Shown here piece by piece: positions 1-40,555 of a DNA stretch of 64,000 nt. The notes under the pieces were generated by a model. That model searched no databases, was not told the DNA's origin, and saw only the letters and a list, made by a program, of their open reading frames with translations. The stretch lies in contig CAZMYL010000002.1 in NCBI GenBank assembly GCA_964570505.1, positions 53,414 through 117,413 of the forward strand. Direction: 5' to 3'. The DNA comes from an uncultured Pseudomonadota bacterium. Lineage in GTDB: Bacteria > Babelota > Babeliae > Babelales > CAIQNR01. Numbering within the stretch: position 1 is the stretch's first letter; each line of letters begins with the position of its first letter. The position numbers were made by a program, and so were the translations under genes.

Positions 1-99
1 CTCTTCTCGTTCATCTTATTCTATGCCAATGCCATCTCCTGAAGACGTATACGAATAATTTTGATCAACATATACATCCATCTATAAAGGAGTAATGTA

Positions 100-5041: not shown

Positions 5042-7572
5042 AAATAAAATTAATAAAAAAATTAAAAATATCTCTTCTTTTTTCAGTATACATTCTTGCA
5101 CAAGCATCATCGGAAAATAGAAGCCTGTTGGCAAATTTAACACCTCAACAAAACACTCCATCTTTTATAAGTAATCCAATTATAGGAGCACCAAGTTCCA
5201 CAAGTGCTCCAATAGCGCCTGCTCAAAAAACAACTGCTGAAGAAAACAAAACTTTAAACACGCAAGAAATGTTGCCATTAAAAGATCAAAAGACTGAGCA
5301 AGAAGTTAAATCAATCGAAAAAAAAGACCATGTATTACCTTTGCCAGAACCAAAATTAGATGTAAAAAATGAATCAACAAAATCAAAAATAAACATATCA
5401 AAAGAAGATATCAGCAAAGATCAAATTATTCGTTTCTACTTTGAAGACGCAACGCTAGAAAATCTTGTTCGCTATATGGAAAAATTATTTGATATCAAAT
5501 TTTTTGCAGATGACGATATAGAACCAATGCCACAAGGTGGATCTGTTTTAAAAGGTCACAAAATAACTTTCAAGACTAATCAACCTCTTACTCGAGATGA
5601 AGCATGGAATCTATTTCTTAAATTTTTAGACATTGCTGGCCTTACTGTTGTTCCAACTGAAAGAAAAAAATTCTACTACATAACATCTGTAACCAATGCA
5701 AATAGTGAAGTTCTTGTAACATATTTTGATTCAAAAATATCTGATATTCCTGATAATAGTGGAAAAATACGTTACGTATTTTTTATAAAAAACGCTCCTC
5801 TTGCTACTATACAAAAAGTGATCAATTCATTTTCAAGCAGCACTGCCAAAATAAATGTCTTTCCAGAGCTTAATGCAATTATTGTTGTAGACAAAGGTTC
5901 TATAATTCGATCAGTTCTTAATATTGTTAAAGAATTTGATAAAGAAGTCCCTGAGTGTATGAGTGTATTAAAACTCAAAAAAGCAGATGCTCAGGATGTT
6001 GTAAAACTTTACACAGACTTAACTAATGCAGAAAGTCCTCAAGGTGTTGGAAAAATGTTTTCGGCAAAAGCTCAATCAGAATCAAATTTCTTTCCATCAA
6101 ATGCTCGTGTTCTTGCAGAACCTCGAACTAACTCTTTAATTATATTAGGCAATAGAAAAGCAATAAATAAAATTGAAGAGTTTATAAAAACTACTATCGA
6201 CACATCACTAGACCTTCCTTATTCACCTCTTTATATATATGAACTCCAATACACTCAAGCTGAAAACATGCAAAGAATCTTAACCTCTGTTGTTGATTTT
6301 GGATCTTCAACCGCCGCTGGGCAATTTGGTGGCGTAAGAGATGGAGATCAATATTTTAGACCCATGACGATTACAGCAGATACTGATGGAAATAGGCTCA
6401 TTATAAAAGCAGAAGAAGCTGATTATTTAAAACTTAAAGAAATGATTAAAAAGCTTGATGTTTTACAGCCACAAGTTGCAATTGAAGTTTTAATTGTAGA
6501 CGTTGAAGTAACAGATGAAAAAGAACTTGGTGCTCAAATTCGACAAAAATATCCTGCACAACCTTTTCCAAATGCTCAATTTGCAACAAGTGGTATGCCT
6601 GGTAATGGTTACCTTAATCAAGCAGTAATGCCAGAAACTGGATCGTCTTTGCTGGGTAATTTAATTGCTCTGGCACAAAATCAAACAGCAGGGGCAACGC
6701 TCCTTTCATTTGGTTCAGAACTTACCGGCGGTGTATGGGGAATGTTAAGAGTGCTTGAAACATACGGAAAAACAGATGTTATTTCTAATCCATTTTTATT
6801 AACAACAAATGGTTACACCGCTTTGGTAGAGCTGGGAACGACTCGTCGTATTAATACTTCTACATCACTTTCTGCTGGTGCGGCACAACAAGGTTTCCAG
6901 CCTATTACTGCAAACCTGACTGTAACTATTAAGCCTCAAATTAGTACTGATGGGGCTATTCAAATGGGCATTTCCATAAACATGACTGACTTTAGCAGTG
7001 AAGCGATTACCGATGGGAATACCAATCAAAAAATTGTACAGACGGCTGCAATTGTTAATGATAAAGAAATTTTAGTTCTTGGTGGGGTAGTTAAAACTTC
7101 CACAGCTGTATACATGTCAAAAGTGCCAATACTTGGCGATATTCCTATTATTGGATGGCTGTTTAGAAATAAACAAAAAATAAAAACAAAGAGTAATTTG
7201 TTAATTTTCATTTCTCCTCGCATCATTTACAGCAACACAGAAGAAGGCGCTAAAACATATACTCAATCAAAAACAAAAACTGTTAAAAATATTATGGACA
7301 GTTCAATTATTAGCAGCGGCAAAAAAGACCCTATTGATAATTCATTTTTTAATGAAAGTGACAGTGGTGGTAGCGAGTTTGCTTTCTTGAACAATCCTAC
7401 ACCTCACGAACATTTATATGATGCAAAAAGAAAACGACGAAGAACTCCAGAAGAACGGAAAAAAGCAGTTTCTGAAAATCAAACAGAGAAAAAATTATCA
7501 AAACGACAAATGCGCAAAGAAAGAATAAAAGAGCGTCAACTTCAGAAAAAGCAACAAAAGGGGCATGCATGA
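5038..7572 (+). CDS. gspD: secretin, GspD family (paralog 1)
   Basis: The ORF is 844 aa with a signal peptide and a linker of about 100 aa. The N0-like block is IRFYFEDATLENLVRYMEKLFDIKF, and the N-domain motif is AEPRTNSLIILG. The secretin core reads QPQVAIEVLIVDVEVTDEKELGAQ ... ILVLGGVVKT ... VPILGDIPIIGWLFRNK ... LLIFISPRII. The C-terminal tail is very basic. Confidence 0.9.
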   Translation: MKIKLIKKLKISLLFSVYILAQASSENRSLLANLTPQQNTPSFISNPIIGAPSSTSAPIAPAQKTTAEENKTLNTQEMLPLKDQKTEQEVKSIEKKDHVLPLPEPKLDVKNESTKSKINISKEDISKDQIIRFYFEDATLENLVRYMEKLFDIKFFADDDIEPMPQGGSVLKGHKITFKTNQPLTRDEAWNLFLKFLDIAGLTVVPTERKKFYYITSVTNANSEVLVTYFDSKISDIPDNSGKIRYVFFIKNAPLATIQKVINSFSSSTAKINVFPELNAIIVVDKGSIIRSVLNIVKEFDKEVPECMSVLKLKKADAQDVVKLYTDLTNAESPQGVGKMFSAKAQSESNFFPSNARVLAEPRTNSLIILGNRKAINKIEEFIKTTIDTSLDLPYSPLYIYELQYTQAENMQRILTSVVDFGSSTAAGQFGGVRDGDQYFRPMTITADTDGNRLIIKAEEADYLKLKEMIKKLDVLQPQVAIEVLIVDVEVTDEKELGAQIRQKYPAQPFPNAQFATSGMPGNGYLNQAVMPETGSSLLGNLIALAQNQTAGATLLSFGSELTGGVWGMLRVLETYGKTDVISNPFLLTTNGYTALVELGTTRRINTSTSLSAGAAQQGFQPITANLTVTIKPQISTDGAIQMGISINMTDFSSEAITDGNTNQKIVQTAAIVNDKEILVLGGVVKTSTAVYMSKVPILGDIPIIGWLFRNKQKIKTKSNLLIFISPRIIYSNTEEGAKTYTQSKTKTVKNIMDSSIISSGKKDPIDNSFFNESDSGGSEFAFLNNPTPHEHLYDAKRKRRRTPEERKKAVSENQTEKKLSKRQMRKERIKERQLQKKQQKGHA

Positions 7573-9068
7573 TCCATAACATATTTTTACCTGAAAAAAT
7601 TAATGATTATTATCTTTTTAAGAAAAAGATTGTTTCATTTACCTTTTCAAAAGAAACTGTCTCAGCTCTATGCGTAACATTACATGCACGAACAAAAGTT
7701 ATAAATGAAATCATCACAGAAAAAATTTTATATGATAATTATGAAACAGCTGATCTTGCATTACTTAACACAATTAAAAAAATTATTGATGCAATAGGTT
7801 CATACACAGAGGTAATAGTTGTTATAAACAGTGATCATGCAATTTTTAAAGAACTTACTATACCGCTTTTAGACGAAGAAAAAATTAGTCAAGTTGTAAA
7901 ATTTGAGCTTCAAGAATATTTGCCTTTTTCTGTAGAAAACGCAGTTTTTGACTTTATAATAACTAATCAAAATAAAGATACACAAACTTCAGATATTTTT
8001 ACTGTAGCATTACAAAAAGAAATAATTGATACATATACACGATTATTTTTAGAGCTTGAAATTAAAGTTGATACTTTTTCAATTGATGCATTTGATATAT
8101 ATGGTCTTTTTTTATCAACTAATAATACTATTGATGAAAAAGCAAAATTAATTGTGTCATCAAATGAAGCAAGAACCATAATTTTGTATCTTGAAAAGAA
8201 TATACTTAAAAAAATAAGAGTTTTAACAGAAAGTTCTAGCCTTAATAATACAGACAACAATAATGAAGATTGGTGGCAAAATATTAATTTTACGCTTGAA
8301 TCATGCACTCAAAATTGGACAGGCGAAAAAGAGATTGTTTTTCTTGGGACTTATTCATCAGAATTTATAGATAAAGCCACATCACAATTGAATGTTCCTT
8401 GCATTTATAACGATATAAAAAAAATTATAGAAAAATTTTCAATCGAAATATTAAAAGAAGATGACAAAGATGTAATTTCGCTAGCAAATCTTGCTGCATC
8501 GCTTGATTTACCATTAACTGAAAATTTCAACTTACAAATTACAACTAAAAGTGCAGATCTCTCAAAAAATGTCGTTATAAATTATGCCACCATAACAACG
8601 CTATTAATTATTATATATACATCACTTTGTCTTGATGCTTTTTTTGAAATAAAAAAATTCAAAAATGAATCAGAAAAAATTAAAACGAGTATTGTTAAAG
8701 ATTTAAAAGCTGCATTACCCTCGCTTAAATCAAATTCAGCTTCAGAATCTATCAGAAAAGCAAAAACAGAAATAGCAAAAGAAGAAAATATTTGGTTTGC
8801 ATTTTCAAGCCAAACAAAACATTCATTTTTAACCTATTTATTTGAATTAAGCACAATGATAGACAGAGAAACATTAGGGCTTAATCTTAAAAAAATGACC
8901 TTTAATAAAAATGGTATTATTCTTGATGGTAATGTACGAAGTTTTGATGCAGTAGAAGAATTAATTAAACAATTAAAAAATACAAACTTATTTGTGCAAG
9001 TGCCAAATCTACAAAAAACAGAATTTTCTATGCCTCTTACACTTATAAATCAAGAGGAAAGATCATGA
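7569..9068 (+). CDS. bitopic assembly-platform protein, GspL-like or PilM-PilN-fusion-like
   Basis: The ORF is 499 aa. It has a cytoplasmic part of about 330 aa, a single TM (VVINYATITTLLIIIYTSLCLDAFF) and a C-terminal part of about 140 aa. It has ATGA overlaps with both neighbours. The call rests on topology, size and position, not on a recognised motif. Confidence 0.45.
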   Translation: MIHNIFLPEKINDYYLFKKKIVSFTFSKETVSALCVTLHARTKVINEIITEKILYDNYETADLALLNTIKKIIDAIGSYTEVIVVINSDHAIFKELTIPLLDEEKISQVVKFELQEYLPFSVENAVFDFIITNQNKDTQTSDIFTVALQKEIIDTYTRLFLELEIKVDTFSIDAFDIYGLFLSTNNTIDEKAKLIVSSNEARTIILYLEKNILKKIRVLTESSSLNNTDNNNEDWWQNINFTLESCTQNWTGEKEIVFLGTYSSEFIDKATSQLNVPCIYNDIKKIIEKFSIEILKEDDKDVISLANLAASLDLPLTENFNLQITTKSADLSKNVVINYATITTLLIIIYTSLCLDAFFEIKKFKNESEKIKTSIVKDLKAALPSLKSNSASESIRKAKTEIAKEENIWFAFSSQTKHSFLTYLFELSTMIDRETLGLNLKKMTFNKNGIILDGNVRSFDAVEELIKQLKNTNLFVQVPNLQKTEFSMPLTLINQEERS

Positions 9069-9631
9069 TCAATATATTTCAAAAAATACATGATTATCTT
9101 TATACACTTGACACTAAAGATTTTTATAAAAATATAGGAATATTTTTAGGAGCAAATGTTTTAGTTTGCGCTTTTATTATGTATGCATCTTTAACAACTA
9201 TTGCTTCATATAAAAATTCACTTCAAGAAGATTATAAAAAAGAACAAGAGACAGCACAATTACTCAGAAGGCTTGCAAAAGTAAAAAAACAAAGTGAAGA
9301 AATAAATACAATTTTAGAACAAGAACCAACATTTAGAATTAAAAATTTCTATGATGACACTATAAAAAAATTAAACTTAGAAGCACATCAACGTCGACAA
9401 TCAGAAGTTTCTGAAGAAGATATACTAAGCGGACGCTATACAGAAATAAGATTAAATGCATTGTTAAATGGAATCGACACTCATCAATTATGTAACTTAC
9501 TACAAACTCTAGAAGAAAAAGATCGTATTTACATGAAAGAGCTCGTAATAACAAAAAAAGATTCTTTGATTGATGTTAATATTACAATTGCAACATTAAC
9601 ATTAGAAGATAATAGAAAAAAAGCAGTTTAA
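9065..9631 (+). CDS. GspM/PilO-like bitopic membrane protein
   Basis: The ORF is 188 aa. It has the N-terminal TM IGIFLGANVLVCAFIMYASLTTIA, a K/E/Q-rich coiled coil and a small C-terminal domain. The call is based on operon position between the L-like gene and the second secretin. Confidence 0.4.
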   Translation: MINIFQKIHDYLYTLDTKDFYKNIGIFLGANVLVCAFIMYASLTTIASYKNSLQEDYKKEQETAQLLRRLAKVKKQSEEINTILEQEPTFRIKNFYDDTIKKLNLEAHQRRQSEVSEEDILSGRYTEIRLNALLNGIDTHQLCNLLQTLEEKDRIYMKELVITKKDSLIDVNITIATLTLEDNRKKAV

Positions 9632-9643
9632 AAAGGTTTTATC

Positions 9644-12313
9644 ATGAAGAAGCTTGCCTTTATTTTATTTTCACTCACAGCTCTAGCTTCTTGGAGCTTG
9701 TCAGCAGAAATTATACCTGTTACAAAAAATTCTACTGTCTTCAAAAAACAAGAGGATTTTTCAGTAGATGAAAAACTTATATCATTTAGATTTAATCAAG
9801 CTCCATTAATTGAAATAATAAACATGCTTGCCGAAGAAAAAGGTCTCAATATAGTAATTCCAGCAGGGCAACAATCAATCGCTGAAAAAGTTACTTTTGA
9901 AATGCCAGAAAAAATAACTGTTGGAGAGGCGTGGGAAAGGCTTTTGAGCTTTTTAAGAATATGTGGATATTCGGTAATCTTTCAAAGAGAGTTTGTAACA
10001 ATCATAAAAAATGATCCTAAAGACACATCGCGTCAACCATTTCCTCTTTATGTACAAACCAGCACAAGTGTTATTCCTAATACTGATGAAAAAATTCGTT
10101 ATCTTTACTATTTTTATAACATGCAACTTTCAGGTGACTCAAATAGCGGATCTGTTATAGATATATTACAAGCATTTCTTTCCAAAGATGCAACAATATT
10201 ACCTTTAGATGATGGTAGTAACGGAATTGTAATAACTGATGGAGCTCGTCATATTGCTTCAACTATCAATCTTCTTAAAGAACTTGATGAAAGGATGCTG
10301 GGCAACGAAGGAAGAGAAGTTGTTAAACTCAAACACACCGTAGCAACAACAATTGCTGCTTACTTACAATCAATAATTAATCCATCAGGAAAGCAAATGG
10401 CAGGGGATATTGGAGCACCAGCAATGTCTCAATATTTTTCAAAAAACATTCGTATTGTTCCAGAACCTCGAACAAATTCTCTTATTTTATTAGGCAAAAA
10501 AGAACCCCTTGCTCGTATAAAATTATTTATAGAAGAATTTATTGATATAAAATTAGATTCAGGAGAATCAATTTTACATATTTATGATTTACAATATCTA
10601 GATGCAGCAACATTTAAACAAACATTAAGCAGTATTTTAGCTTCACAAGGAGCTGCCTCAAGTCAATCAAGTGGTTCTACTGCCAATAGCTCTGGGCAAC
10701 AATATTTTAAAGATGTAAAAATAGTCGCAGAATCAACACAAGCAGTTAACCCAGCAACGCTTGCTAGCGTTTCTTCTGGTAATGTTTCTGCCAATAATCA
10801 AGCAGGTAATCGATTAATTATTGCAGCAAAACGAGATGACTGGTTAAGAATAGAAAAACTTATTAAAGACTTAGATAAGCCTCAGCTTCAAGTAGCCATT
10901 GAAGTGTTAATTGTTGACTTGACTGTAGCTGAAGATAAAATTCTTGGCGCTCAATTACGCAATCTTTCTAGTTTAAGCATTGGAAGTGCAAATTTCCAAA
11001 CATCACACTTAGGTGGTAACGCAAATGGAGTATTTATTGAAGCTCCAGCAATAAATAGTACTAGTGGCGATCAGCTTAAGTCTGATCTTTTGCAAAAAAC
11101 TGGTAACAACTCTGCAGGAAACCAAGAAAATATGGCTTCTGGTTTTACAGCAGGTTCATTTATTTTATCATTTAAAGATCCTGCAACTAATGGTATGTGG
11201 CTTATTACGCAAATGCTTAATACATATCAAGATGCAAAAATACTTTCACAACCATTTATTGTTACGCTCAATAATCAACCAGGATCATTTAGCACAGTTC
11301 AAAGCAAATTGCTTGCAGGTGGATCAAGCGTTATTCCTGGTGGTGGTGGTGTACAATCATATAAAGAAAACGTCAAAGCTACCTTAGGTGTTAAATTAAC
11401 TCCTATGATAAGCCGTGATATGAGAATTAATTTAGCAATAGATGTATCTATTCAAGAATATCAAGATACTAACTCAACAGTTATTTTAAATAGAGCAATA
11501 CATACAAACGTCAATATTCGTGATGGCGAAATATTAGTTCTTGGAGGATTAACAAAAACAACTTTAACAAAAAGTGAGCGCTCAACACCAATTTTAAGTA
11601 GAATTCCAGTAGTTGGTAATCTTTTTAAAAGCAAAGACAATGCAAAATCAAAAGACAATCTTCTTGTTTTTATATCTCCTCGCATCATAATGCCAAGAAA
11701 AGAAGGTATATTTGATGCATACACCGCAAGTAAAATATCTAACGTTAATAAAATGTTTGATAACAACAATATGGAAAGTTTAAAAGATCCTATTACTCAC
11801 TGGTTTTTTGGCTCTGATCAAGATGAATTAGCAGTTAAAAAAGTAAAAATGCTCGGCAAAAAAGACCTATTTGATCAAGATATTGATTTAGAGAATGAAC
11901 GATCTTCAAAAATAATTATTGTAAATAAAAATGAGCAACTCTCTCCATCTGACATTAAAGAATCCGTTTCTTTAATTCCATCTCCAGACAAAACAGAATT
12001 AGACAAAACAGCTACTGGATTACCAAAATTAATTGTCCAAGCTCCTCCAAAAATAAATAACGTAAAAAAAGAAACAGATGAAGTTTTAAATGAAGCAATT
12101 TTAATGGAAGAGCTTAATAATCAACAAAATGAATCCTCACAGAAAAAAATAATTGAACGAACAAAAACAGGAATCCCTAAGATTATTGTAAAGCATCCAG
12201 AAAATATAATTAGAGAAAAAAAAGAAGAAGAATCAAATAACAATTTTGAGTATCTTAATAAAGAAGATGCTAATTTAAAAAAATTAGCATCACAACTTAA
12301 ACCTATTAATTAA
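9644..12313 (+). CDS. gspD: secretin, GspD family (paralog 2) with long C-terminal extension
   Basis: The ORF is 889 aa with a signal peptide. The N0-like block is ISFRFNQAPLIEIINMLAEEKGLNIVIP, and the N-domain motif is VPEPRTNSLILLG. The core reads LQVAIEVLIVDLTVAEDKILGAQ ... ILVLGGLTKT ... TPILSRIPVVGNLFKSK ... LLVFISPRII. A tail of about 200 aa follows. Confidence 0.9.
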   Translation: MKKLAFILFSLTALASWSLSAEIIPVTKNSTVFKKQEDFSVDEKLISFRFNQAPLIEIINMLAEEKGLNIVIPAGQQSIAEKVTFEMPEKITVGEAWERLLSFLRICGYSVIFQREFVTIIKNDPKDTSRQPFPLYVQTSTSVIPNTDEKIRYLYYFYNMQLSGDSNSGSVIDILQAFLSKDATILPLDDGSNGIVITDGARHIASTINLLKELDERMLGNEGREVVKLKHTVATTIAAYLQSIINPSGKQMAGDIGAPAMSQYFSKNIRIVPEPRTNSLILLGKKEPLARIKLFIEEFIDIKLDSGESILHIYDLQYLDAATFKQTLSSILASQGAASSQSSGSTANSSGQQYFKDVKIVAESTQAVNPATLASVSSGNVSANNQAGNRLIIAAKRDDWLRIEKLIKDLDKPQLQVAIEVLIVDLTVAEDKILGAQLRNLSSLSIGSANFQTSHLGGNANGVFIEAPAINSTSGDQLKSDLLQKTGNNSAGNQENMASGFTAGSFILSFKDPATNGMWLITQMLNTYQDAKILSQPFIVTLNNQPGSFSTVQSKLLAGGSSVIPGGGGVQSYKENVKATLGVKLTPMISRDMRINLAIDVSIQEYQDTNSTVILNRAIHTNVNIRDGEILVLGGLTKTTLTKSERSTPILSRIPVVGNLFKSKDNAKSKDNLLVFISPRIIMPRKEGIFDAYTASKISNVNKMFDNNNMESLKDPITHWFFGSDQDELAVKKVKMLGKKDLFDQDIDLENERSSKIIIVNKNEQLSPSDIKESVSLIPSPDKTELDKTATGLPKLIVQAPPKINNVKKETDEVLNEAILMEELNNQQNESSQKKIIERTKTGIPKIIVKHPENIIREKKEEESNNNFEYLNKEDANLKKLASQLKPIN

Positions 12314-15583: not shown

Positions 15584-17503
15584 TTAAAATGTATAAGTTA
15601 ATCCAGTTGCAAAACTATACGCAACATCACTCCACAAGAGCGGGAAATAATCCGGCAAATCTGTAGGGTCAACTGAATCAAGTTGCTTTCTTTGGGCTAA
15701 TGTAAATGGCTGACCATGAACATCAACATAATGAGAGCCTGGCTGAAACACTGCCATCATAAAATCAACAACAACGTTATCACTTAAATTTGCTCTAGAT
15801 ATTAAATTAAATTCTGTTCCCAAAAACTTGCTTGCTTTTTGATCAGTTGTAAGCTTTGTTAATAAATCAAATTTATTTCCAGGAGCCTGCTCCCAATAAA
15901 CAAGAAGATTTGGATTTAAAGCAGTCTTAAAATGTGATTCTTTATTTAAATAACTTAAACTAACACCCGTAAAAACTAAATTACTAAAAGTATCAACTAT
16001 TGTTGAAAACAAGTTTCCAGTTGGAGGTGTAGAAAGAGGTCGAACAAGCTTCTTGCTTCCACCCATCACAAAGACACTCTTAACTAATTTACCAGCATAT
16101 AACTCTTGCAAACTCACAAAACCCTTATAATCTCCATCAACCTTAGAAGCTAAAGGATCTAATAAATTAGTATTTGGATTCATATCTCCACTTGCAATAC
16201 CAGCTGTAAAAGCAAGTTTTAAGTCTCTTTTATATGCCCAATAACCAATATCACTTACAAACATATATCCTTTGTAAATATTAGTATAAGGCGCTCTGAA
16301 GCGAATAGGGCTATTATAATAAGTTGTCCCTGGAATTTGAGCTCCATTAAAATCTATTGATCTTGGAACACTATTTACCGCTTTTCTTGTTGCAGTGTCT
16401 AATGCATTATAAACAAGCTGTTCAGCTGGTCCTACAGGATAAACTGCAGGATTAACGGTATATACATCTGAAAATGTATATGTTGTAACCCCATTAACAT
16501 TCAATCTTTGAATAACGTTACGATCAAGTCCTCTTACATCTTGAGCTCCAAAATTCATTGCTCCGTCAAAACCACCTTCCCAATCATTATATACAGCATC
16601 CATAGCCATACCAACGCTTGTTAATTTACTTTTAGCATCAGCATAAACTTCTATTGTTTGCTCTGGAGCGCTATTATGAACAACATATGGTTCAAATTTT
16701 AATTTTGAAGTATGTGTGGAAACAGGAGTAATATTTAAACGAACAGCTCCGATCCAATTAACTTTACCAAAGCCACGTGATGAATCTGGGGGTCTGTCAA
16801 AAAACTGAGCCTGAGTTTTCATTAAGTTATCAGATATTCCAGTGCTATTGTTTTGTAAAATTGCAGTATATATATCATAAGAAAAATCAAAATCTTTAAA
16901 AAATCCACCGGTAAATTTTACACCGTATGCGTATTGATCTACAGTGCCGTCTGTATAAAATCCTAATGTACCAGGATTAACAGCGTAAGCATCTCCTAAT
17001 GCAATACCACGTCCTAATTGAAAAGGAAAAGACCCAATAGTTAAACTATGAAATGGAGCATTTAATCCAAGAGCCTCTCTTAGGTCAACTTGAAACCAAG
17101 CTTCACGCAACCAAGTTAAAGGCAAATTAACAGTATGCTGGTGAGCTTCATCAAGTGGTTGTAAATAGCCTCCATCATCTTTTAACTGAACAAAAGATGT
17201 TTTACTCGTTTTATTATTACCCCACACAGCTTTCATGCGTAAATCTAAAACAGCCTCAACTACAGGATTATTTATATTAAAAAAAGCATCAAAGCTGATT
17301 CTATTAGCAAAACCCTTATCTGCACTTACAGAATTATTAAGTAAAGATGAAAAAATATCAAAGTTTGTACCTGTAGCAATTTTACCTTTAAATTCAAGGT
17401 TTTCATTTAAATCTTGATTAAAATATTGAAATTTTGCAAAAGAAGAAAATGTTCCAAAAAAAGTTACAAAAAGTAAAAAAAATTTTTTAAATTTTTTAAA
17501 CAC
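15584..17503 (-). CDS. outer-membrane beta-barrel protein (putative porin, family not recognised)
   Basis: The ORF is 639 aa with the signal peptide MFKKFKKFFLLFVTFFGTFSSFA. It is rich in alternating aromatic/Gly beta-strand patterns. The C-terminus GLTYTF ends in Phe, the typical OMP sorting signature. Confidence 0.6.
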   Translation of the reverse strand: MFKKFKKFFLLFVTFFGTFSSFAKFQYFNQDLNENLEFKGKIATGTNFDIFSSLLNNSVSADKGFANRISFDAFFNINNPVVEAVLDLRMKAVWGNNKTSKTSFVQLKDDGGYLQPLDEAHQHTVNLPLTWLREAWFQVDLREALGLNAPFHSLTIGSFPFQLGRGIALGDAYAVNPGTLGFYTDGTVDQYAYGVKFTGGFFKDFDFSYDIYTAILQNNSTGISDNLMKTQAQFFDRPPDSSRGFGKVNWIGAVRLNITPVSTHTSKLKFEPYVVHNSAPEQTIEVYADAKSKLTSVGMAMDAVYNDWEGGFDGAMNFGAQDVRGLDRNVIQRLNVNGVTTYTFSDVYTVNPAVYPVGPAEQLVYNALDTATRKAVNSVPRSIDFNGAQIPGTTYYNSPIRFRAPYTNIYKGYMFVSDIGYWAYKRDLKLAFTAGIASGDMNPNTNLLDPLASKVDGDYKGFVSLQELYAGKLVKSVFVMGGSKKLVRPLSTPPTGNLFSTIVDTFSNLVFTGVSLSYLNKESHFKTALNPNLLVYWEQAPGNKFDLLTKLTTDQKASKFLGTEFNLISRANLSDNVVVDFMMAVFQPGSHYVDVHGQPFTLAQRKQLDSVDPTDLPDYFPLLWSDVAYSFATGLTYTF

Positions 17504-19886: not shown

Positions 19887-21977
19887 CTATACTTTTAAAT
19901 AGCATTCAACAATGTCATCAACTTGCCAATCGACAAATCCATCTACTATGAAAGCACATTCAAATCCAGTATGCACTTCTTTTACAGTTTTTTTATCTCT
20001 TTGAAGGCTTTTTACTTTTCCTTCGCCTACTTGCTTTTTGCCTCGCTTGATAATGACATTTCCATTTTCAGAAAATCTGCCTTCTCGAATATAGCATCCA
20101 GCAATAACACCAAGTTTTTTAATATCAAAAACTTTAAGAACAGTGGCTTCTCCAATTTTAACTTCTTTCTTTTCAATAACTTTTGCTTTTTGAGATCGAA
20201 TCTCTAAATCTTCAAATAATTTATAAATAATATCAAAAGCTAGAATTGTTACTTTGCTATTTCTTGCAAATTGATGAGCTGCTGTTTCAATTTTTGTATG
20301 AAATCCGACAACTAATGCATTAGAAGTTTCTGCTAAAATAACGTCATTTTCTGTAACGTTACCAACTGCTGCATGAACCACAAAATAACTAATGTCGGCA
20401 TTCTTTGAAATTTTTTCAATTCCATCAAGAACAGCTTCTAATGAAGAATTTGTATCTGCCTTTATAATAAGAGGCAATGTTTCTTTATCTAAATTAGACG
20501 ATACTCGTAAATTAGTTGCTCTATTTTTCACTCCACGCTCTTTACGATATTCTTCTTCTGAAATAACTCTCAAAAGTTCACCTGTTGAAGGAAATTCTTC
20601 AAATCCAGAAATTATAACAGGAACTGAAGCCCCAATTTGCTTTTGCTGAGTTCCATAACAATCAACAATTGAAGAAACCTTACCCCAAACTTTTCCTGCA
20701 TTAAAAAAGTCGCCTACTTTAAGGACCCCCTGGCGAAATAAAACTGTTGCAACAGGGCCTCTTCCTCGTTCGATTTTTGATTCTAAAATATAACCTTGCG
20801 CAGGAACAGTTGTAATTGTTTTAAGTTCTAACATTTCAGCTTGCAAAAGAATCATCTCAAGCAAACCATCAACACCTTGTCCTGTTTTTGCAGAAATAGG
20901 ACAACAAACTACCTGCCCTCCCCACTCTTCAGTAATAACACCATATTGAGATAATTGTCTTTTGATAATTTCAACACGAGAAATATCTGCTTTATCAATT
21001 TTATTAATTGCAACAACTATTGGTAGCTGCATTGCCTGAATAGCTTTAATTGACTCAACAGTTTGAGGCATAACACCATCATCTGCGGCAACAACTAACA
21101 CAGCAACATCGGCAACAGAAGCTCCTCTTTGTCTAATTTTAGAAAAAGCCTCATGACCTGGAGTATCGAGAAAAACAAGATTCCCTTGAGGCGTATGAGC
21201 TTCATAAGCACCAAGATGTTGTGTAATGCCACCTTTTTCTTTTGCGGCAACACGTGTTTTTCTAATATAATCAAGCAAACTAGTCTTGCCATGATCAACA
21301 TGACCCATAATAACAACTACAGGCAGCCTAGAAACACCGTTACCCAAAGAAGAATTTGTATTTAATTCATGAAAAGAGTCAGATGTTGTTTTTTTAAAAA
21401 CAGGTTTTACAAGCTCTATTTCATATATTTTTGCAAGCTTTTCTACTTGCTCAACTGTAAGTAAATGATTTTTTGTACAAACCTGCCCATCTTTCAGAAG
21501 GGTTATGATTACATCACTAACAGGCCTATTGATTCGCTGACAAAAATCAGCAATAATAATTGGCTCTAAAGTTAAAGGTTTTAATTCAAAAACCTCTTCT
21601 TGTTTAACATTTTTTTTAATGTCTGTTTTTTTGTATTGAAATTTTTTTGAATTATCAAAATCAACATATTTTTTAGTTTGAATCATAGGATTTGTTGATT
21701 TTTTTTGAGAATTAGAAACAGTTTTTTTCACGCTTTTTTCTTTTTGTAGGGTTAGGTTAGTTTGTGAAGCACTTATATTATTTGATCTTACTTCAATGCG
21801 AGTGTCTTCTTTTTTTTGCCTGCTATCTTCAGAAGAAAAGTGTTTTTGCAATACATTAACCATTTCTTCAGAGATAACCGATACATGACTTTTCAGATCA
21901 AGACCTTCTTTTTTTAAAAAATCTAAAACCTGTTTACTCGTCACGTTATATTTTTTTGCAAATTCATGTACTCGCAT
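19887..21977 (-). CDS. infB: translation initiation factor IF-2
   Basis: The ORF is 696 aa. The GTPase motifs are GHVDHGKTSLLD, DTPGHEAF and NKID. It lies immediately downstream of nusA. Confidence 0.97.
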   Translation of the reverse strand: MRVHEFAKKYNVTSKQVLDFLKKEGLDLKSHVSVISEEMVNVLQKHFSSEDSRQKKEDTRIEVRSNNISASQTNLTLQKEKSVKKTVSNSQKKSTNPMIQTKKYVDFDNSKKFQYKKTDIKKNVKQEEVFELKPLTLEPIIIADFCQRINRPVSDVIITLLKDGQVCTKNHLLTVEQVEKLAKIYEIELVKPVFKKTTSDSFHELNTNSSLGNGVSRLPVVVIMGHVDHGKTSLLDYIRKTRVAAKEKGGITQHLGAYEAHTPQGNLVFLDTPGHEAFSKIRQRGASVADVAVLVVAADDGVMPQTVESIKAIQAMQLPIVVAINKIDKADISRVEIIKRQLSQYGVITEEWGGQVVCCPISAKTGQGVDGLLEMILLQAEMLELKTITTVPAQGYILESKIERGRGPVATVLFRQGVLKVGDFFNAGKVWGKVSSIVDCYGTQQKQIGASVPVIISGFEEFPSTGELLRVISEEEYRKERGVKNRATNLRVSSNLDKETLPLIIKADTNSSLEAVLDGIEKISKNADISYFVVHAAVGNVTENDVILAETSNALVVGFHTKIETAAHQFARNSKVTILAFDIIYKLFEDLEIRSQKAKVIEKKEVKIGEATVLKVFDIKKLGVIAGCYIREGRFSENGNVIIKRGKKQVGEGKVKSLQRDKKTVKEVHTGFECAFIVDGFVDWQVDDIVECYLKV

Positions 21978-22007: not shown

Positions 22008-23060
22008 TTAAAATTCTTCACTTAATTTTTCATCAAGATTTCCATAATCACTTTGCATTAGTTCTATATGAACACCTGACAATTCTGATGCTAAAGTTAT
22101 ATTTTGACCCATTTTACCTATAGCAAGAGACCTTTGGTCGTCATCTAACATAATCTTAGCCGCTAAATTATCATCAGACAACTCAACTCTATTAATCTCT
22201 GCAGGTTTTAAGGAGTTCTTTATTAATAACTCTAAATTATCTGTCCATGCAATAATATCGACTTTTTCATTGCCTAGTTCTTTTAAAATAGGCTTAATTC
22301 TAACGCCACCAACACCAACACAAGTTCCTACAGGGTCAATATTTGTATCATGAGAAATAACAGCTATTTTTGTTTTATAGCCAGGTATTCGAACAATTTT
22401 TTTAATCTCTACCAATCTTTCAAAAACTTCAGGAATCTCTAAGCCAAATAATTTTTCAACAAAAATAGCCGAAGATCTATCAAGAATAAGCTGATTTTCG
22501 TTTTTAGGTTGCTCTAAAACCTCTTTAATTAAAACTCTAATTGGGTGGCCCAAAGGCAATCTTTCACCTGGAACACTTAAAGATTTTGGTAAAAACGCAA
22601 GATGATCTTGAATCTTAATTGTAGCACCACCGCGTTCTATCTTATGTACAACCCCTTGCACAATAGTATTTTCTTTATCTTTAAATGACTTGTAAACAGC
22701 AAGAGCTTCAATTTGTCTAATTTTTTGGGCAATAATTTGCTTTGCTTTTAAAATTTCAATTCGTCCAATTGGTAAAGTAAAAGGAACCCAAAGCTTATCT
22801 CCAGCAGCAATTGTATCGTTTATTGCCTTTGCTTTTCTTAGAGAAATTTCAAATTCATCATCTTCAACTACAGAAACAACGTCTTTTTCTACTTCAATGG
22901 AAAGAGTATCTTTTTTCTTGTCAAATGAAACACGTAAAAAAAGATTTGGATAGCGTTTTTCGTATGCAGCTAACATTCCCTCGCATACAATATCGCTTAA
23001 AATATCTTCTTCTAGGCCTCTTTCTTCTACAAGCGCTTCTATAACTTCTGAGAGTTTCAC
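22008..23060 (-). CDS. nusA: transcription termination/antitermination factor NusA
   Basis: The ORF is 350 aa with an N-terminal domain, an S1 domain and two KH domains (GVCVGVGGVRIKPI; IGKMGQNITLASELSG). The nusA-infB gene order is conserved. Confidence 0.95.
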   Translation of the reverse strand: MKLSEVIEALVEERGLEEDILSDIVCEGMLAAYEKRYPNLFLRVSFDKKKDTLSIEVEKDVVSVVEDDEFEISLRKAKAINDTIAAGDKLWVPFTLPIGRIEILKAKQIIAQKIRQIEALAVYKSFKDKENTIVQGVVHKIERGGATIKIQDHLAFLPKSLSVPGERLPLGHPIRVLIKEVLEQPKNENQLILDRSSAIFVEKLFGLEIPEVFERLVEIKKIVRIPGYKTKIAVISHDTNIDPVGTCVGVGGVRIKPILKELGNEKVDIIAWTDNLELLIKNSLKPAEINRVELSDDNLAAKIMLDDDQRSLAIGKMGQNITLASELSGVHIELMQSDYGNLDEKLSEEF

Positions 23061-23102
23061 TTAAAATTCCTATACATTTGAGGGGTTAGTTTACAATTTT
23101 TG

Positions 23103-23168
23103 AAGACTTTTTCTGATAAAAATAATATCAGATTCAAAAAAAATAAAAAGTCTTGTTTTTTCTTTTTC
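23103..23168 (+). terminator. long hairpin plus T-tract (terminator-like on the plus strand only)
   Basis: The outer stem pairs aagacttttt (23103-23112) with aaaaagtctt (23145-23154). An inner stem pairs ctgata with tatcag. The hairpin is followed by gttttttctttttc. It lies in the nusA upstream region, and no plus-strand gene lies upstream of it. Confidence 0.3.
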
Positions 23169-23208
23169 AACTTTTACATCTCATTTTTGGTCGTTTTATT
23201 ATCTCTCT

Positions 23209-23239
23209 AAATATATATTTATATATAATAATAATATAT
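23209..23239. other. 31-bp A/T-only tract (candidate DNA unwinding element)
   Basis: The tract aaatatatatttatatataataataatatat contains no G or C and abuts the first DnaA box at 23253. Confidence 0.3.
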
Positions 23240-23319
23240 CTTCCGGCTAGACTGTGGATAACTTTTATTAAAAAGCCTTAAAACATGCTTATATAAATGG
23301 TTTTTTTAATTTTTTAACA

Positions 23320-23350
23320 TGTGGATAAGTGGTGGATAAGTGGTGGATAA
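23320..23350 (-). repeat. tandem 11-bp DnaA-box array (3 units)
   Basis: tgtggataagt ggtggataagt ggtggataa. The unit starts are exactly 11 bp apart. Confidence 0.9.
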
Positions 23351-23472
23351 CTTTTACCATAAATGTGGATAACCTTTAAAACATGCCTCTACAGAGCTTT
23401 TTGATGATTTTTATATTTAAAATATCGATCAGCTGAGCGTTTTGAAGCTTTTTTGCTAGATTAAAATTAAAG

Positions 23473-23514
23473 CTATCCACCACTTATCCACCACTTATCC
23501 ACCACTTATCCACA
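23473..23514 (+). repeat. tandem 11-bp DnaA-box array (4 units), inverted relative to 23320-23350
   Basis: ctatccaccac ttatccaccac ttatccaccac ttatccaca. This is the reverse complement of the left array. Confidence 0.9.
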
Positions 23515-23565
23515 ATTTCTATTATAAGAATATTATATTTTTAATAAGCTTTTTATTTTTTGATA

Positions 23566-24153
23566 TTAATTTCTATTTTGATTTTTTGAGAGATCAAATG
23601 CTTTTTTTATGTCATCTAACAATAGGGAGTATTTTTTAAAGTTTCTTAGTATGTATGCTGGATGGTATGCAACAATCACAATTGCATTATGATAACTTAA
23701 TGTTGTTTTTTTAAGCTCTTCAAGTCTTGTTTTTTTAGGTGTAAAAAATTGAGAAGCTGTGCTTCCTAGGGTACAAATTACTTTAGGATTTATAATTTCA
23801 ATTTCTTTAACAAGCAAATGCTTTGTGCATATTAAGCTTTCAGAGGGTGTTGGTGTTTTATTATCTGGAGGTCTACATTTTACAATGTTAGTTATATAAA
23901 AATCATTTTCAGCGATATTTAGTTCTTGAAATATTTTATTAAGAAGTTTTCCAGATCTTCCTACAAAAGGCTCTCCCTTAATGTCTTCTTCCTTTCCAGG
24001 GCCTTCCCCTATAAACATAAGCGAAGCGGTTGGATTTCCTCTGCCAGGAACAATTTGAGTTCTTTCTTTTGAAAGAGGGCATAGTATACAGTTTTTATAA
24101 GATGCATAGAGTTCTTCAAGAAGCTTTTGTTTTATATGTTGTTGTAAAAGCAT
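23566..24153 (-). CDS. uracil-DNA glycosylase, family 4
   Basis: The ORF is 195 aa. It has the motif GEGPGKEEDIKGEPFVGRSGKLL, Cys residues (CILCP ... VKCRPP) consistent with the family-4 Fe-S type, and HPAYILR near the C-terminus. Confidence 0.85.
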   Translation of the reverse strand: MLLQQHIKQKLLEELYASYKNCILCPLSKERTQIVPGRGNPTASLMFIGEGPGKEEDIKGEPFVGRSGKLLNKIFQELNIAENDFYITNIVKCRPPDNKTPTPSESLICTKHLLVKEIEIINPKVICTLGSTASQFFTPKKTRLEELKKTTLSYHNAIVIVAYHPAYILRNFKKYSLLLDDIKKAFDLSKNQNRN

Positions 24154-26909: not shown

Positions 26910-27673
26910 ATGAATTATAGAACAACTTTTTTAGTTATTTTAAACTTTTCTTTTGTTGTCAATTATGCTTTTAACTCTGAAAGACCCTCCTCTTTTAGTA
27001 AAGAGGAAGAAAAAGAAAGTGAAATTTTAAAAAAAATAAATCAAGAAATAGCTTTTTTTCCAAAAGAAATGCTTTTTTAGATCAAAATAAAAAAAAGCAT
27101 GACTTAGTAGATTGTAGACAAGCTACAGCATGTTCTTCTTGTGTAGAGCATGATAAAAAGAAAAAATTTACTTTAAGTGCTTATGATTATTTAATAAATC
27201 TTTCTAAAATTAATGTGAAAGTTACAGTTGTTAATAAGAATTTATATATTAAGCCTATTTTTCCAGATTGCACTGATGCTTGTCGTGATAGTTTAGACCC
27301 TTATCATATTATTAATATTGGTAGAAACGTTTTGTCAAAGCCTCCAAGGGAGTCTAAGATTCATGAAAAATTTAAAAAATTTTTTTTACAAGCCAGAACA
27401 AATAAAGATAGATTTTTAAGCCAGATTTCCTGCAAAGGAGTAAAATCTTTTATTGAGATGAGCTTTGCAATTGACATGAAAGAAGATTTTGAAGTAAAGT
27501 TTCATCCTGTTAAAGGTCAGTATAGAGATCCAATCAGCAATTATTTTGGTTTGCTCTTATATGAATCATATAAAGATTATGTACAAAAAAATTTCACCCC
27601 GTTTCACGCACTTTTAAGTGTTGCAAATTCTGAACGTAAAAGAACTTTTTCAAAAGCTGACTTAGGAGAATAA
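26910..27673 (+). pseudogene. frameshift-split gene for a secreted protein of unknown function
   Basis: An ATG ORF (26910-27080, signal peptide MNYRTTFLVILNFSFVVNYAF) stops at 27078. The -1 frame is open from 27023 through 27673 and includes the listed 27215-27673 ORF. The two frames overlap at a T7 run (27053-27059). Confidence 0.6.
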
Positions 27674-38055: not shown

Positions 38056-39420
38056 TTATTTGCCTACGCAAAAGTCTTTAAAGATGGCATCCATTACTTG
38101 CTCGGTAACAGATTTTCCTGAAAGTTCAGAGAGTGTTGAAAGTGCGTGCTGAAGGTGTAGCGATATGAGCTCGTATTCACGATTTTTATAAAGTAATTCT
38201 TGAGCATAATTAAGCTCGGTAAGAAATGATTTTAGTAAATTGTAATGTCTTTTATTGAGTAAAAAAGATGAGTCCGTTTCTTCAAATAATGAATTTATTT
38301 TTTGATTGATTGTTTCTATTAAATCTTCAATGCCTTTTTTTGTTTTTGTTGATAGATGCAAGGACTTTTGATTGCTTTTTGGCCACAAAGCTTCATGTTT
38401 AAGATCAATTTTATTAGTAACAATAATACTTTTTGATGGATAAATATTTATAATATTCTGATATATAATTTCTTCTTGTGCTGTTGTTGTTCGAGACCCA
38501 TCTATAACAAGAATAATAATGTCAGCTGTTTGCGCTTCTTGATAACTGCGTTCAATTCCCTGTTGCTCAATATAATCATCTGTTTGTCGCAATCCTGCTG
38601 TGTCAATAATTGTCCAATAAAAACCATTTTTATAAAAACCTGCCTCAATACTATCTCTTGTTGTTCCTGCAATATTTGTAACAATTGCTCGCTCTTTCCC
38701 CAATAAGCTGTTAAAAAGCGATGATTTTCCTGCATTAACAGAACCAATCAAAGCAATTCTAATTCCTTCGCGGATTTGCTTTTGTTGATCAAAAAGATTT
38801 ATAAGTTCTGATGTTTTTTTATTAATACCAGAAAGAAGTTCTTTCATCTGTTCAGAAAAATCCATTTCTTCTTCTAAAAACTCAAAACTAGCTTCGCATA
38901 GGCCAATAGCTTGTATTAATTGTTTTTCTAAATTTTGAATATGATTGGAAAGGCTACCGCGAATTTGCTGAAGAGAAAGTTTTAAACTTTCCTGAGATTG
39001 TGCATGTATTAATTCTTTAATAGCTTCTGCTTTAAGAATATCAATTTTATTATTTTCTACAGCTTGTCGAGAAAATTCTCCAGCTTGAGCAAGTCGAGCT
39101 CCGGATTGAATTGCTCGTTCTATGATGTTTTCAATGATAAATGGATTATTGTGACAAGAAATTTCTACCGTATGCTCACCGGTAAATGTTTTTGGAGCAT
39201 GCATAACAAGAAATAAAACTTCATCTATTTTTTTGTTATGAGAGTCAATCACCCATCCATGATTAATTGTATGTGAATTTACGTCAAAAAGATTTTTTCC
39301 AGAAGAGAGCTGTGCAATATGAGATGTAATAATAAGTGCTTGCGCTCCTGAAATACGAATAAGCGCTAGTGCTCCTACTCCTGAAGGTGTACATTGAGCA
39401 ACGATAGTGTCCGTAATCAT
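38056..39420 (-). CDS. mnmE: tRNA modification GTPase MnmE
   Basis: The ORF is 454 aa. It has the G-domain motifs GSVNAGKSSL and DTAG, and the hallmark C-terminal FCVGK. Confidence 0.95.
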   Translation of the reverse strand: MITDTIVAQCTPSGVGALALIRISGAQALIITSHIAQLSSGKNLFDVNSHTINHGWVIDSHNKKIDEVLFLVMHAPKTFTGEHTVEISCHNNPFIIENIIERAIQSGARLAQAGEFSRQAVENNKIDILKAEAIKELIHAQSQESLKLSLQQIRGSLSNHIQNLEKQLIQAIGLCEASFEFLEEEMDFSEQMKELLSGINKKTSELINLFDQQKQIREGIRIALIGSVNAGKSSLFNSLLGKERAIVTNIAGTTRDSIEAGFYKNGFYWTIIDTAGLRQTDDYIEQQGIERSYQEAQTADIIILVIDGSRTTTAQEEIIYQNIINIYPSKSIIVTNKIDLKHEALWPKSNQKSLHLSTKTKKGIEDLIETINQKINSLFEETDSSFLLNKRHYNLLKSFLTELNYAQELLYKNREYELISLHLQHALSTLSELSGKSVTEQVMDAIFKDFCVGK

Positions 39421-39454
39421 AACAAAAGCACTTATATTAAAATGATTAAACTTT

Positions 39455-40255
39455 TTATTCTGATGTTTTTTTAATTTCTACTGGTTCAGTTGGCTTGCTA
39501 CTTACATAACGTCTACTTGATACTTTAAGAACTTTTCGTTGTGTTTGTCCTATAGGTATTGTCATTACTGGACGTTCTTGTGGAGTATTTTGAGTTTGTG
39601 TAGGAGCTGAATGTTCTGACATAATTATTTCAGAATTTGGATATGGCTGAACAAGAGGCTCTTTATAGTTTTTGTCGGAATGGTCAGAAGGTGTTTTCTG
39701 AGATCTTTGCGTATTTTTATCATTCTGACGACGACTTGATAATCTGTCGTTTTTATGATCATTTTTTTTAGCAAAGTCTCTGTTCTTTTCTCTGATATAT
39801 CGACCATTTTCATTTTTATTTTCATGATTATTATCAGAACGATTTTCTGTTCTATTATCACTAGCTTCTAAATGATCTTCTGAAAAACGGTGTTGTTTTT
39901 GATTTTGACGATAATTTGTTTTTGGTTCTTGAGAAGTATTTCTTGGTGAGCGATCTGCCCGTTCTGAATTTTCAACTCCACGTTCTAGTCTATTTGTATA
40001 AGAACCAGATTGATTTTTGTGTGAGCGGCTATTTCGATTATCTTGTCCGTAATGGCGACGGTCTTGTGATTTTGCAAACTCTTCTTCGAAAAAAATTCCA
40101 ACCTTTGCAGATTTTTTAGTAAATCCTAAAAAGTTTTTTTCGCCTGTTTCATAAATTTTTACAGAGAATGATGATGGTTTTCCTGCGCGTTCCCATGCTT
40201 TTTCTATAGCTTTAGCGATAGATGATGCTTCTTCAACCAATGATTTCATTTTCAA
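39455..40255 (-). CDS. Jag-N-domain protein with a long disordered basic tail (no recognisable KH/R3H)
   Basis: The ORF is 266 aa. The first 60 aa or so (VEEASSIAKAIEKAWERAGKPSSFSVKIYETGEKNFLGF) resemble the Jag/KhpB N-terminal domain. The rest is an R/N/D/K/Q/S-rich low-complexity region. The position upstream of mnmE matches the usual jag-mnmE order. Confidence 0.6.
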   Translation of the reverse strand: MKMKSLVEEASSIAKAIEKAWERAGKPSSFSVKIYETGEKNFLGFTKKSAKVGIFFEEEFAKSQDRRHYGQDNRNSRSHKNQSGSYTNRLERGVENSERADRSPRNTSQEPKTNYRQNQKQHRFSEDHLEASDNRTENRSDNNHENKNENGRYIREKNRDFAKKNDHKNDRLSSRRQNDKNTQRSQKTPSDHSDKNYKEPLVQPYPNSEIIMSEHSAPTQTQNTPQERPVMTIPIGQTQRKVLKVSSRRYVSSKPTEPVEIKKTSE

Positions 40256-40479: not shown

Positions 40480-40555
40480 TGGAGCGGAAGACGGGATTCG
40501 AACCCGCGACCTTTGCCATGGCAAGGCAACGCTCTACCAGCTGAGCTACTTCCGC
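40480..40555 (-). tRNA. tRNA-Gly (anticodon GCC), CCA encoded
   Basis: The 76-nt cloverleaf was folded by hand: acceptor gcggaag/cttccgc, D arm gctc-agctggta-gagc, anticodon stem ttgcc/ggcaa with loop ttGCCat, T arm gcggg-ttcgaat-cccgt, discriminator t, then cca. Confidence 0.95.

Follow-up and report, generated by a model that had tools for sequence, protein, structure and literature searches.

We analyzed a 64,000-nucleotide stretch of contig CAZMYL010000002.1 (referred to throughout as the window), in which a 505-bp intergenic region at positions 23061 to 23565 separates nusA from a gene for a family-4 uracil-DNA glycosylase (UDG). The region contains nine DnaA boxes, arranged mostly in two opposed arrays, and an AT-rich DNA-unwinding element (DUE). 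An earlier note, made from the sequence of the window, had described an oriC-like element here that does not lie beside dnaA, and the analysis supports that description: the cumulative GC skew has a local minimum at the element, the shift in skew is independent of gene strand and recurs in relatives, and the boxes adjoin a DnaA-trio module of the kind known from other origins. We put the probability that the UDG-nusA intergenic region is the chromosomal replication origin (oriC) of this Candidatus Dependentiae (TM6/Babeliales) bacterium at roughly 87%. The element is almost certainly an origin; it is of the ordinary DnaA-dependent kind, not linked to dnaA, and unusually regular.

RESULTS

Two opposed arrays of DnaA boxes between the UDG gene and nusA

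The genes on both sides of the element had been named as nusA and a UDG, both on the minus strand, and Pfam and NCBIfam searches confirmed this. The flank on the DUE side is nusA (22008 to 23060, minus strand), with the Pfam domains NusA_N and KH_5 and with homologs that are 100% to 58% identical in Dependentiae. It is these homologs, with source names such as Candidatus Babeliales and Candidatus Dependentiae, that assign the window to the phylum. It is followed by infB (19887 to 21977, minus strand) in a nusA-infB arrangement. The flank distal to the DUE is the family-4 UDG gene (23566 to 24153, minus strand), which matches TIGR00758 at 3.4e-52. For comparison, 80 loci (designated L001 to L080) were collected from GTDB species representatives via NusA alignment, with NusA identities of 58 to 95% and up to 10 kb of sequence on each side. 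A large majority of these loci are assigned to Dependentiae, Babeliales, or TM6, and a few of the assignments of metagenome-assembled genomes (MAGs) are evidently wrong. The closest relative, L001, whose NusA is 95% identical, served as the partner for phylogenetic footprinting.

A scan of the whole window for TTATCCACA with at most one mismatch returned 19 sites, which is the chance expectation for the window overall, and 8 of the 19 are packed into the 262 bp from 23253 to 23514. The Poisson probability of at least eight sites in such an interval is 4e-14, or 3e-9 when multiplied by 64,000 start positions, and in 200 first-order Markov simulations no more than 3 sites fell within 262 bp. The word TTATCCACA occurs on the minus strand at 23253, 23320, and 23364 and on the plus strand at 23506, and the word TTATCCACC occurs on the minus strand at 23331 and 23342 and on the plus strand at 23484 and 23495. 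A ninth box, CTATCCACC, starts at 23473 on the plus strand; it has two mismatches and thus stands outside the one-mismatch list. The nine boxes and two inverted arrays that the earlier note had reported were therefore all recovered, and its exact 11-bp tandem units within an inverted repeat proved correct as well. The boxes are 9-mers with 2 bp between them, and the arms of the inverted repeat (23320 to 23350 and 23484 to 23514) are 31 nucleotides long and 100% complementary. The box word of the window is the canonical TTATCCAC(A/C). With nine boxes in 262 bp, the cluster falls within the definition of a DnaA-box cluster attributed to Mackiewicz in the passage of PMC7561715 that quotes it, namely, at least three boxes spaced less than 100 bp apart on average.

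Proceeding from the nusA side, the element starts with a consensus box (23253 to 23261, minus strand) that matches TTATCCACA perfectly and is the counterpart of R1 in Escherichia coli and of boxes 6/7 in Bacillus subtilis. A gap of 58 bp (23262 to 23319; 67 bp from box start to box start) with weakly conserved, phased A- and T-tracts separates it from the DUE-proximal array (23320 to 23372, minus strand). In this array, the boxes at 23320, 23331, and 23342 follow each other at 11-bp steps and the box at 23364 follows after a 22-bp step, all of them facing the DUE; the corresponding array of relatives has three to four boxes at 11 to 12 bp. An inter-array spacer of about 100 bp (23373 to 23472) comes next, and its sequence is not conserved, having diverged from that of L001 while the boxes stayed identical. 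The DUE-distal array (23473 to 23514, plus strand) consists of four boxes at 11-bp steps, each directed away from the DUE; its equivalent in relatives has four to five boxes in the same orientation.

GC skew changes sign at the element

The cumulative GC skew of the window reaches its minimum at 23 to 24 kb, with skew values of -0.12 to -0.22 just left of the site and +0.05 to +0.2 on its right. Plus-strand genes have a skew of -0.006 left of the site and +0.154 right of it, and minus-strand genes have skews of -0.167 and +0.018, respectively. The two sides thus differ by about +0.17 within each strand class, and the shift in the window is therefore not an effect of gene orientation. Leading strands have an excess of G over C, and because of this excess a skew that is negative on the left and positive on the right has the polarity of an origin and not of a terminus.

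The same change from negative to positive was found at the cluster in 58 of the 60 relatives' loci that have a cluster and enough flanking sequence, and the cumulative minimum lies no more than 1 kb from the cluster in 56 of the 60. When long open reading frames (ORFs) of the relatives were pooled, those on the left had skews of -0.092 (plus strand) and -0.109 (minus strand) and those on the right had skews of +0.141 (plus strand) and +0.035 (minus strand), such that the effect of side exceeded the effect of strand. A skew switch at the element, which the earlier note had put forward as a mark of an origin, was thus borne out locally, in the window, in these relatives, and in L026, a rearranged locus described below. 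Gene orientation was tallied over loci L001 to L080. On the nusA side of the origin, 369 of 471 long ORFs are codirectional with the predicted fork, and on the UDG side 257 long ORFs, versus 143, point toward the origin and hence head-on to the predicted fork.

A box, a spacer, and DnaA-trios adjoin the unwinding element

The DUE, with the trios included, spans 23199 to 23239 and is about 94% identical to its counterpart in L001, as read by eye from the alignment. Only one other 40-mer in the 64 kb is less stable; the predicted stability is -34.7 kcal/mol against a mean of -48.2 and a standard deviation of 3.8, as befits the unstable AT-rich element that adjoins the boxes of an oriC. Within it runs a tract of 32 nucleotides composed of A and T only (23208 to 23239), and the low stability stems from the TA-rich makeup of this tract. 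DnaA-trio-like repeats can be read from the plus strand at 23226 to 23237 as 5'-TAA TAA TAA TAT-3', or 3'-TAT AAT AAT AAT-5', and are set apart from the consensus box by a GC-containing spacer, atcttccggctagac (23238 to 23252); in relatives, this spacer is 13 to 14 nucleotides long with a G+C content above that of its surroundings. Counted from the box in the window, the spacer is 15 nucleotides to the first NAN trio (TAT) and 18 nucleotides to the three AAT trios.

In the basal unwinding system (BUS) of bacterial origins, DnaA-trios have the consensus 3'-GAT-5' and are preceded by a GC cluster (PMC6669920, PMC8287927, PMC7561715). The published search rule for a BUS calls for a box with no more than two mismatches, a spacer of no more than 16 nucleotides, and at least three NAN trios (PMC8287927), and the window copy, although somewhat degenerate, agrees with it. 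The box at 23253 to 23261 is a perfect TTATCCACA on the minus strand oriented toward the trios, the 15 nucleotides to the first NAN trio fall within the range of 0 to 16 bp (mode, 13), and the run 3'-TAT AAT AAT AAT-5' supplies at least three consecutive 3'-NAN-5' trios. The tandem box pair that lies beside the trios in 57% of predicted BUS (PMC6669920, PMC8287927) is not present here, where the box is single and the next one is 67 bp away.

To compare the unwinding module among relatives, 71 loci were anchored on the nusA-proximal box. The resulting order is AGTTATCCAC(A/C), a spacer of 13 to 14 nucleotides made up of an A- or T-run and then a G+C-richer stretch, CTA TTA TTA (TTA/CTA), and 30 to 40 nucleotides of TA-rich DNA, which gives a phylum trio consensus of 3'-GAT AAT AAT-5' on the complementary strand. 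Under a strict pattern, defined as (C/T)TA repeated at least three times after the proximal box, trios were present in 46 of the 71 loci and began 13 to 14 nucleotides from the box in 39 of those 46. As background, the strict pattern occurs at 0.17% of positions taken arbitrarily, a rate that rises to 1.4% in AT-rich DNA.

In five loci (L028, L039, L043, L057, and L070), inverted trio runs (CTATTATTA ... TAATAATAG) enclose the AT-rich element, together with a second consensus box that lies in inverted orientation 53 to 74 nucleotides past the proximal box. These make up a mirror-image "double BUS," the right-hand box of which is absent from the window. Statistical support for inverted trios across the phylum is weak, the best inverted 10-mer match averaging 8.35 compared with 7.54 in shuffled sequences.

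The architecture is conserved across Dependentiae

In about 65 of the 80 loci, the densest DnaA-box cluster lies directly upstream of nusA, at 180 to 600 bp, and the order UDG-element-nusA is kept in 58 of the 80. The layout is near invariant. Read in the sense of nusA, it consists of about four minus-oriented boxes, a spacer of about 100 to 120 bp, three to four plus-oriented boxes, a gap, and a single plus-oriented box located 170 to 300 bp before the nusA start, a distance that holds for the proximal box in most of the 71 anchored loci. Of the steps within the arrays of relatives, 266 measure 11 bp and 65 measure 12 bp. Between the array and the proximal box, 49 of 66 loci have a gap of 66 to 68 bp and 8 others have one of 54 to 57 bp, shorter by one 11-bp step, and the lengths of the inter-array spacer cluster at about 98, 109, and 120 bp. 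Inside the 67-bp gap, a positional consensus of 51 loci shows weakly conserved AAAA and TTTT tracts about 21 nucleotides apart; these phased tracts are compatible with an intrinsic bend or with a binding site for a nucleoid protein. A search of the two spacers across the phylum found no strongly conserved motif, the weak phased A/T tracts of the 58-bp gap being the sole signal. Footprinting against L001 agrees with this picture. The boxes, the DUE, and the last 90 or so nucleotides before nusA, a stretch that includes the 5' leader and a candidate extended -10 element (23122 to 23130), are almost unchanged, and heavy divergence is seen between the two arrays, in the 58-bp gap, and in the GC spacer.

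Most of the loci without a canonical cluster keep the architecture with a different repeated word. The boxes of L031 (approximately 9480 to 9800) read CTGTTGGAGAA / TTCTCCAACAG with an extra A (CCAACA), those of L064 (approximately 9540 to 9800) read TATGTGGAAAG / CTTTCCACATA, and those of L035, L050, L052, and L054 (approximately 9550 to 9800) are of the GTGAAT / ATTCAC types. Such switches, in which all the boxes of a lineage change together, would imply a re-specification of DnaA domain IV. Two loci have a distal array enlarged at 11-bp spacing, to about 20 boxes in L033 (approximately 9320 to 9630) and to 11 boxes in L069 (approximately 9355 to 9570), which suggests growth through duplication of the unit.

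One locus separates the element from nusA. In L026, an insertion of about 5.5 kb (4200 to 10000), part of which is coding sequence resembling ankyrin repeats, lies between nusA and the origin element. The element, with boxes of the GTGAAT type and TTACTACTATTA, remains beside the UDG gene at 3920 to 4150, and nusA is 5.9 kb away. The skew minimum, at 4431, goes with the element and not with nusA.

A sub-clade consisting of L031, L034, L035, and L038 has an extra box of the TATCCACA type 38 to 81 nucleotides upstream of the nusA start, and DnaA may additionally regulate nusA in these organisms. The window has no such promoter-near box.

Absence of dnaA and other features of the window

The earlier note had seen no dnaA in the window, and three kinds of scan bore this out. 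The dnaA signature motifs GxGKTHL and DHTTV are absent from the window and from all 80 loci, a tblastn search with an E. coli DnaA query gave no match in the window at an E value of 1 or below, and the Bac_DnaA family was not among the matches of the 30 window ORFs scanned against Pfam. It follows that in the window the distance from the element to dnaA exceeds 23 kb toward nusA and 41 kb toward the UDG gene, and that in every relative it exceeds 10 kb. Linkage of an origin to dnaA, dnaN, or mnmG is common and not obligatory, and here neither the window nor the 80 loci contain dnaA.

A candidate extended -10 element of the nusA-infB promoter, TGATATTAT (23122 to 23130, minus strand), would direct transcription away from the origin. 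It is conserved relative to L001, and TGnTAnAAT-like elements occur at similar positions in relatives. A consensus promoter scan did not report this candidate and produced no more matches than in shuffled sequence; its minus-strand match was discarded, being just the box plus the trios.

Both mnmE and jag are classical origin-proximal genes, and mnmE (trmE) together with a Jag_N-containing gene occupies 38056 to 40255 on the minus strand, about 15 kb right of the origin. The same side carries ruvA (40669 to 41271), priA (46493 to 48481), and polA (49553 to 52270), as well as an apparent tandem Ddl-Ddl fusion (43066 to 45267, minus strand) of 733 amino acids with two complete D-Ala-D-Ala ligase modules, the N- and C-domains of which were matched twice each. 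The window also contains a tRNA-Gly(GCC) gene (40480 to 40555, minus strand) and a transfer-messenger RNA (tmRNA) gene with the tag peptide ANNAFANQAFAAA (61882 to 62258, plus strand). The ORFs at 15584 to 17503 (minus strand), 27215 to 27673 (plus strand), and 27677 to 28489 (minus strand) gave no Pfam or NCBIfam match, and the ORF at 32191 to 32880 (plus strand), scanned against NCBIfam only, gave no match there; these matchless ORFs span 152 to 639 amino acids. Rfam and tRNA scans found no RNA family or tRNA in the spacer region. A hit to SNORD59, a eukaryotic small nucleolar RNA, scored 26 bits against a gathering score of 45 and was dismissed as a subthreshold chance match.

DISCUSSION

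Comparison with known origins

The element shares a number of features with oriC of E. coli, which is likewise not adjacent to dnaA. In that origin, R1 faces the DUE over a 13-nucleotide GC-rich spacer that is followed by CTA-type triplets (CTAATAAGA...), R4 is inverted, and the proximal box is separated from the first array by a gap of roughly 60 bp, which holds the IHF site in E. coli. According to the part of PMC6070618 that cites Rozgaja 2011, the E. coli origin has two gaps with four sites each, separated by 2 bp and in opposite orientations, and the window likewise has two opposed arrays of about four 9-mers that are 2 bp apart. The head-to-head arrays, which had been singled out as unusual, are in this respect a parallel to E. 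coli and not a peculiarity. The differences are also clear. The array sites here are consensus boxes or, apart from the ninth box, one mismatch off, and are presumably of high affinity judging from their sequence, whereas those of E. coli are low-affinity sites that prefer DnaA-ATP. The element has no central R2-like box, its arrays are about 100 nonconserved bp apart, and no cluster of GATC (SeqA/Dam) sites and no IHF or Fis sites were identified in it. Its flanks are udg and nusA, in contrast to mnmG (gidA) and mioC in E. coli. There are well-known cases of an origin that is not linked to dnaA, and E. coli is one of them (PMC6669920).

The side of the element next to nusA resembles the BUS of B. 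subtilis incC, in which a spacer of about 13 bp follows the box and leads to three or more trinucleotides with a central A (3'-NAN-5') and then to an AT-rich element. It differs from the B. subtilis BUS in having one proximal box in place of a tandem pair, in not lying between dnaA and dnaN, in the longer spacer of the window (15 to 18 nucleotides), and in trios that are of the AAT type only. The CTA TTA TTA of the relatives (3'-GAT AAT AAT-5') comes very close to the Clostridioides difficile trio, 5'-CACCTACTACTATTACTACTATGA-3' (PMC7561715). A variant DnaA-box word accompanies an altered DnaA domain IV at oriC of Thermotoga maritima (mentioned in PMC6669920), and a joint change of all boxes is likewise seen in some Dependentiae lineages. 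In T. maritima the box is a 12-mer, whereas the window uses the canonical word.

Within the phylum itself, the origin of Chromulinavorax destructans has been placed mid-genome at 651641 to 652233, a 593-bp region, on the basis of whole-genome GC skew and TTATCCACA boxes (PMC6561590). That origin and the 505-bp region described here are alike in size and in boxes. The C. destructans account consists of one sentence and gives no architecture, flanking genes, or comparison (PMC6561590). Our search of the literature for a link between oriC and nusA or for an oriC of TM6 found nothing beyond that sentence, and the genome announcement of Noda2021 does not mention an origin.

Weighing the origin assignment against alternatives

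The assignment draws directly on the anatomy of the sequence and its retention throughout the phylum, on the switch in GC skew, and on the lack of a nearby dnaA. A number of points weigh against it. The evidence is computational throughout, and the skew is local, covering 64 kb for the window and about 20 kb for each relative. Two of the 60 loci, L053 and L059, have a left-hand skew that is not negative. On the UDG side, the orientation of genes is head-on to the predicted fork, and a gene-strand bias, which had been suggested as a further mark of an origin, consequently gives no support. The trio run of the window is weaker than the phylum consensus, with 15 or 18 nucleotides from the box in place of the usual 13 to 14. 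The A/T-only tract that the earlier note had remarked on beside the first box is real but unremarkable by itself, since the window, from a genome with 30% GC, holds 14 AT-only runs of at least 25 nucleotides, and in view of this abundance we rejected it as independent evidence. That this genome encodes DnaA rests on the origin-binding complex described in the phylum (PMC6561590) and not on a dnaA gene found here.

Because dnaA and its surroundings lie outside the inspected DNA, a second or stronger origin could be situated beside dnaA, and the element would then be a secondary origin or one part of a bipartite origin whose second essential box region is elsewhere, for example, flanking dnaA. 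Bipartite origins are known in other bacteria, such as B. subtilis, Helicobacter pylori, and C. difficile (PMC7561715). We nonetheless consider this quite unlikely, since every module, comprising the arrays, the R1-like box, the trios, and the DUE, is already at the locus and the skew switches exactly there in 58 of 60 genomes. The halves of the known bipartite origins, moreover, lie within a few kilobases around dnaA, whereas none of the 80 loci was found to have a dnaA within 10 kb. A role in transcription, in which DnaA would control the nusA-infB operon and the link to replication would be incidental, fits the location of the cluster upstream of nusA in relatives, the extra box 38 to 81 nucleotides before the nusA start in L031, L034, L035, and L038, and the standing of DnaA as a transcription factor, as stated in an excerpt of PMC13438810. 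As the main role of the element it is highly unlikely, however, for in the window the nearest box (23253) precedes the candidate -10 element by about 120 nucleotides and the DUE separates the two, and control of nusA would leave the skew switch and the trio/DUE module unexplained. The insertion in L026 points the same way, as the element and the skew switch stayed with the UDG gene and nusA, 5.9 kb off, is without the element.

The earlier note had also raised a site like datA or DARS (DnaA-reactivating sequence). Such a locus, serving titration or inactivation of DnaA in the first case and reactivation in the second, would bind DnaA without firing as an origin. In favor of this, the boxes are densely clustered, presumably of high affinity, and remote from dnaA. 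To our knowledge, however, datA and DARS are not located at a skew switch and have no adjacent trio/DUE unwinding module, and the cluster described here has both the position and the conserved module, which speaks against this alternative; nor does the element show the layout of the DARS core, with its three boxes. We therefore do not favor a datA- or DARS-like site and regard it as very improbable. Least credible of all is that the element was left behind by a plasmid or phage replicon after integration, or that it is a low-complexity repeat that arose by chance. The regularity of the repeats is the sole point in favor of this, and it is set against the core housekeeping neighbors (nusA, infB, aspS, eno, gatB, polA, priA, and tmRNA), the chance probability of 4e-14, and a position kept across the phylum, which effectively refutes it.

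A proposed mechanism of initiation

For the element as a chromosomal oriC, the likeness to characterized origins suggests how initiation might proceed, and it is by this analogy that we infer that DnaA binds, where the DNA unwinds, that it bends, and what each of the two arrays does. DnaA would bind to the consensus box at 23253 and to the two opposed arrays of 11-bp repeats. The array that faces the DUE (23320 to 23372) and the proximal box would nucleate a DnaA-ATP oligomer, which could then extend over the spacer of 13 to 18 nucleotides onto the trios (3'-AAT-5' three times on the plus strand of the window). The adjacent TA-rich DNA at 23199 to 23239 would melt, and the helicase would be loaded there. 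The distal array (23473 to 23514) may assemble a second DnaA subcomplex, like the right half of the E. coli origin on the R4 side, for bidirectional helicase loading. The fixed and helically phased 67-bp gap would accommodate a bend, either intrinsic or brought about by a protein of the IHF/HU type, and transcription of nusA, which runs away from the DUE, may aid opening.

Implications

The element is not a new kind of origin. What appears to be new is its position, with the order udg-oriC-nusA found across the phylum; the highly regular architecture of two arrays, an R1-like box, and a BUS made from consensus boxes also appears to be new, as do the lineage-specific switches of the box word. 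A broader proposal is that the phylum as a whole has an "idealised" oriC that occupies a fixed place between udg and nusA and has no link to dnaA. In this origin, the plan of two opposed arrays, which E. coli conceals in degenerate low-affinity sites, would be spelled out in consensus boxes at exact 11-bp phasing and combined with an R1-like box, a phased 67-bp gap, and a canonical BUS, and several sub-lineages have switched the word (TTCTCCAACAG, TTTCCACAT, or ATTCAC) with the geometry kept, implying repeated coevolution of DnaA domain IV and the origin. For this full proposal we would give even odds.

Bacterial origins are usually described as highly diverse, and for that reason the conservation of the Dependentiae origin stands out, with one architecture and one position kept over a deep divergence in which NusA falls to 58% identity. 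An origin assigned in this way would fix the start of replication in a phylum of which little is known and whose members are obligate intracellular parasites of protists, and it could be used to orient genomes, to check the completeness of MAGs, and to estimate growth rates from sequencing coverage by the peak-to-trough ratio. The regular arrays, together with the lineages that have switched their box word, offer clean natural variants for models of DnaA oligomerization and origin unwinding. If the "idealised" oriC is true, the phylum would constitute a natural test series for the rules by which DnaA oligomers assemble and by which boxes are re-specified.

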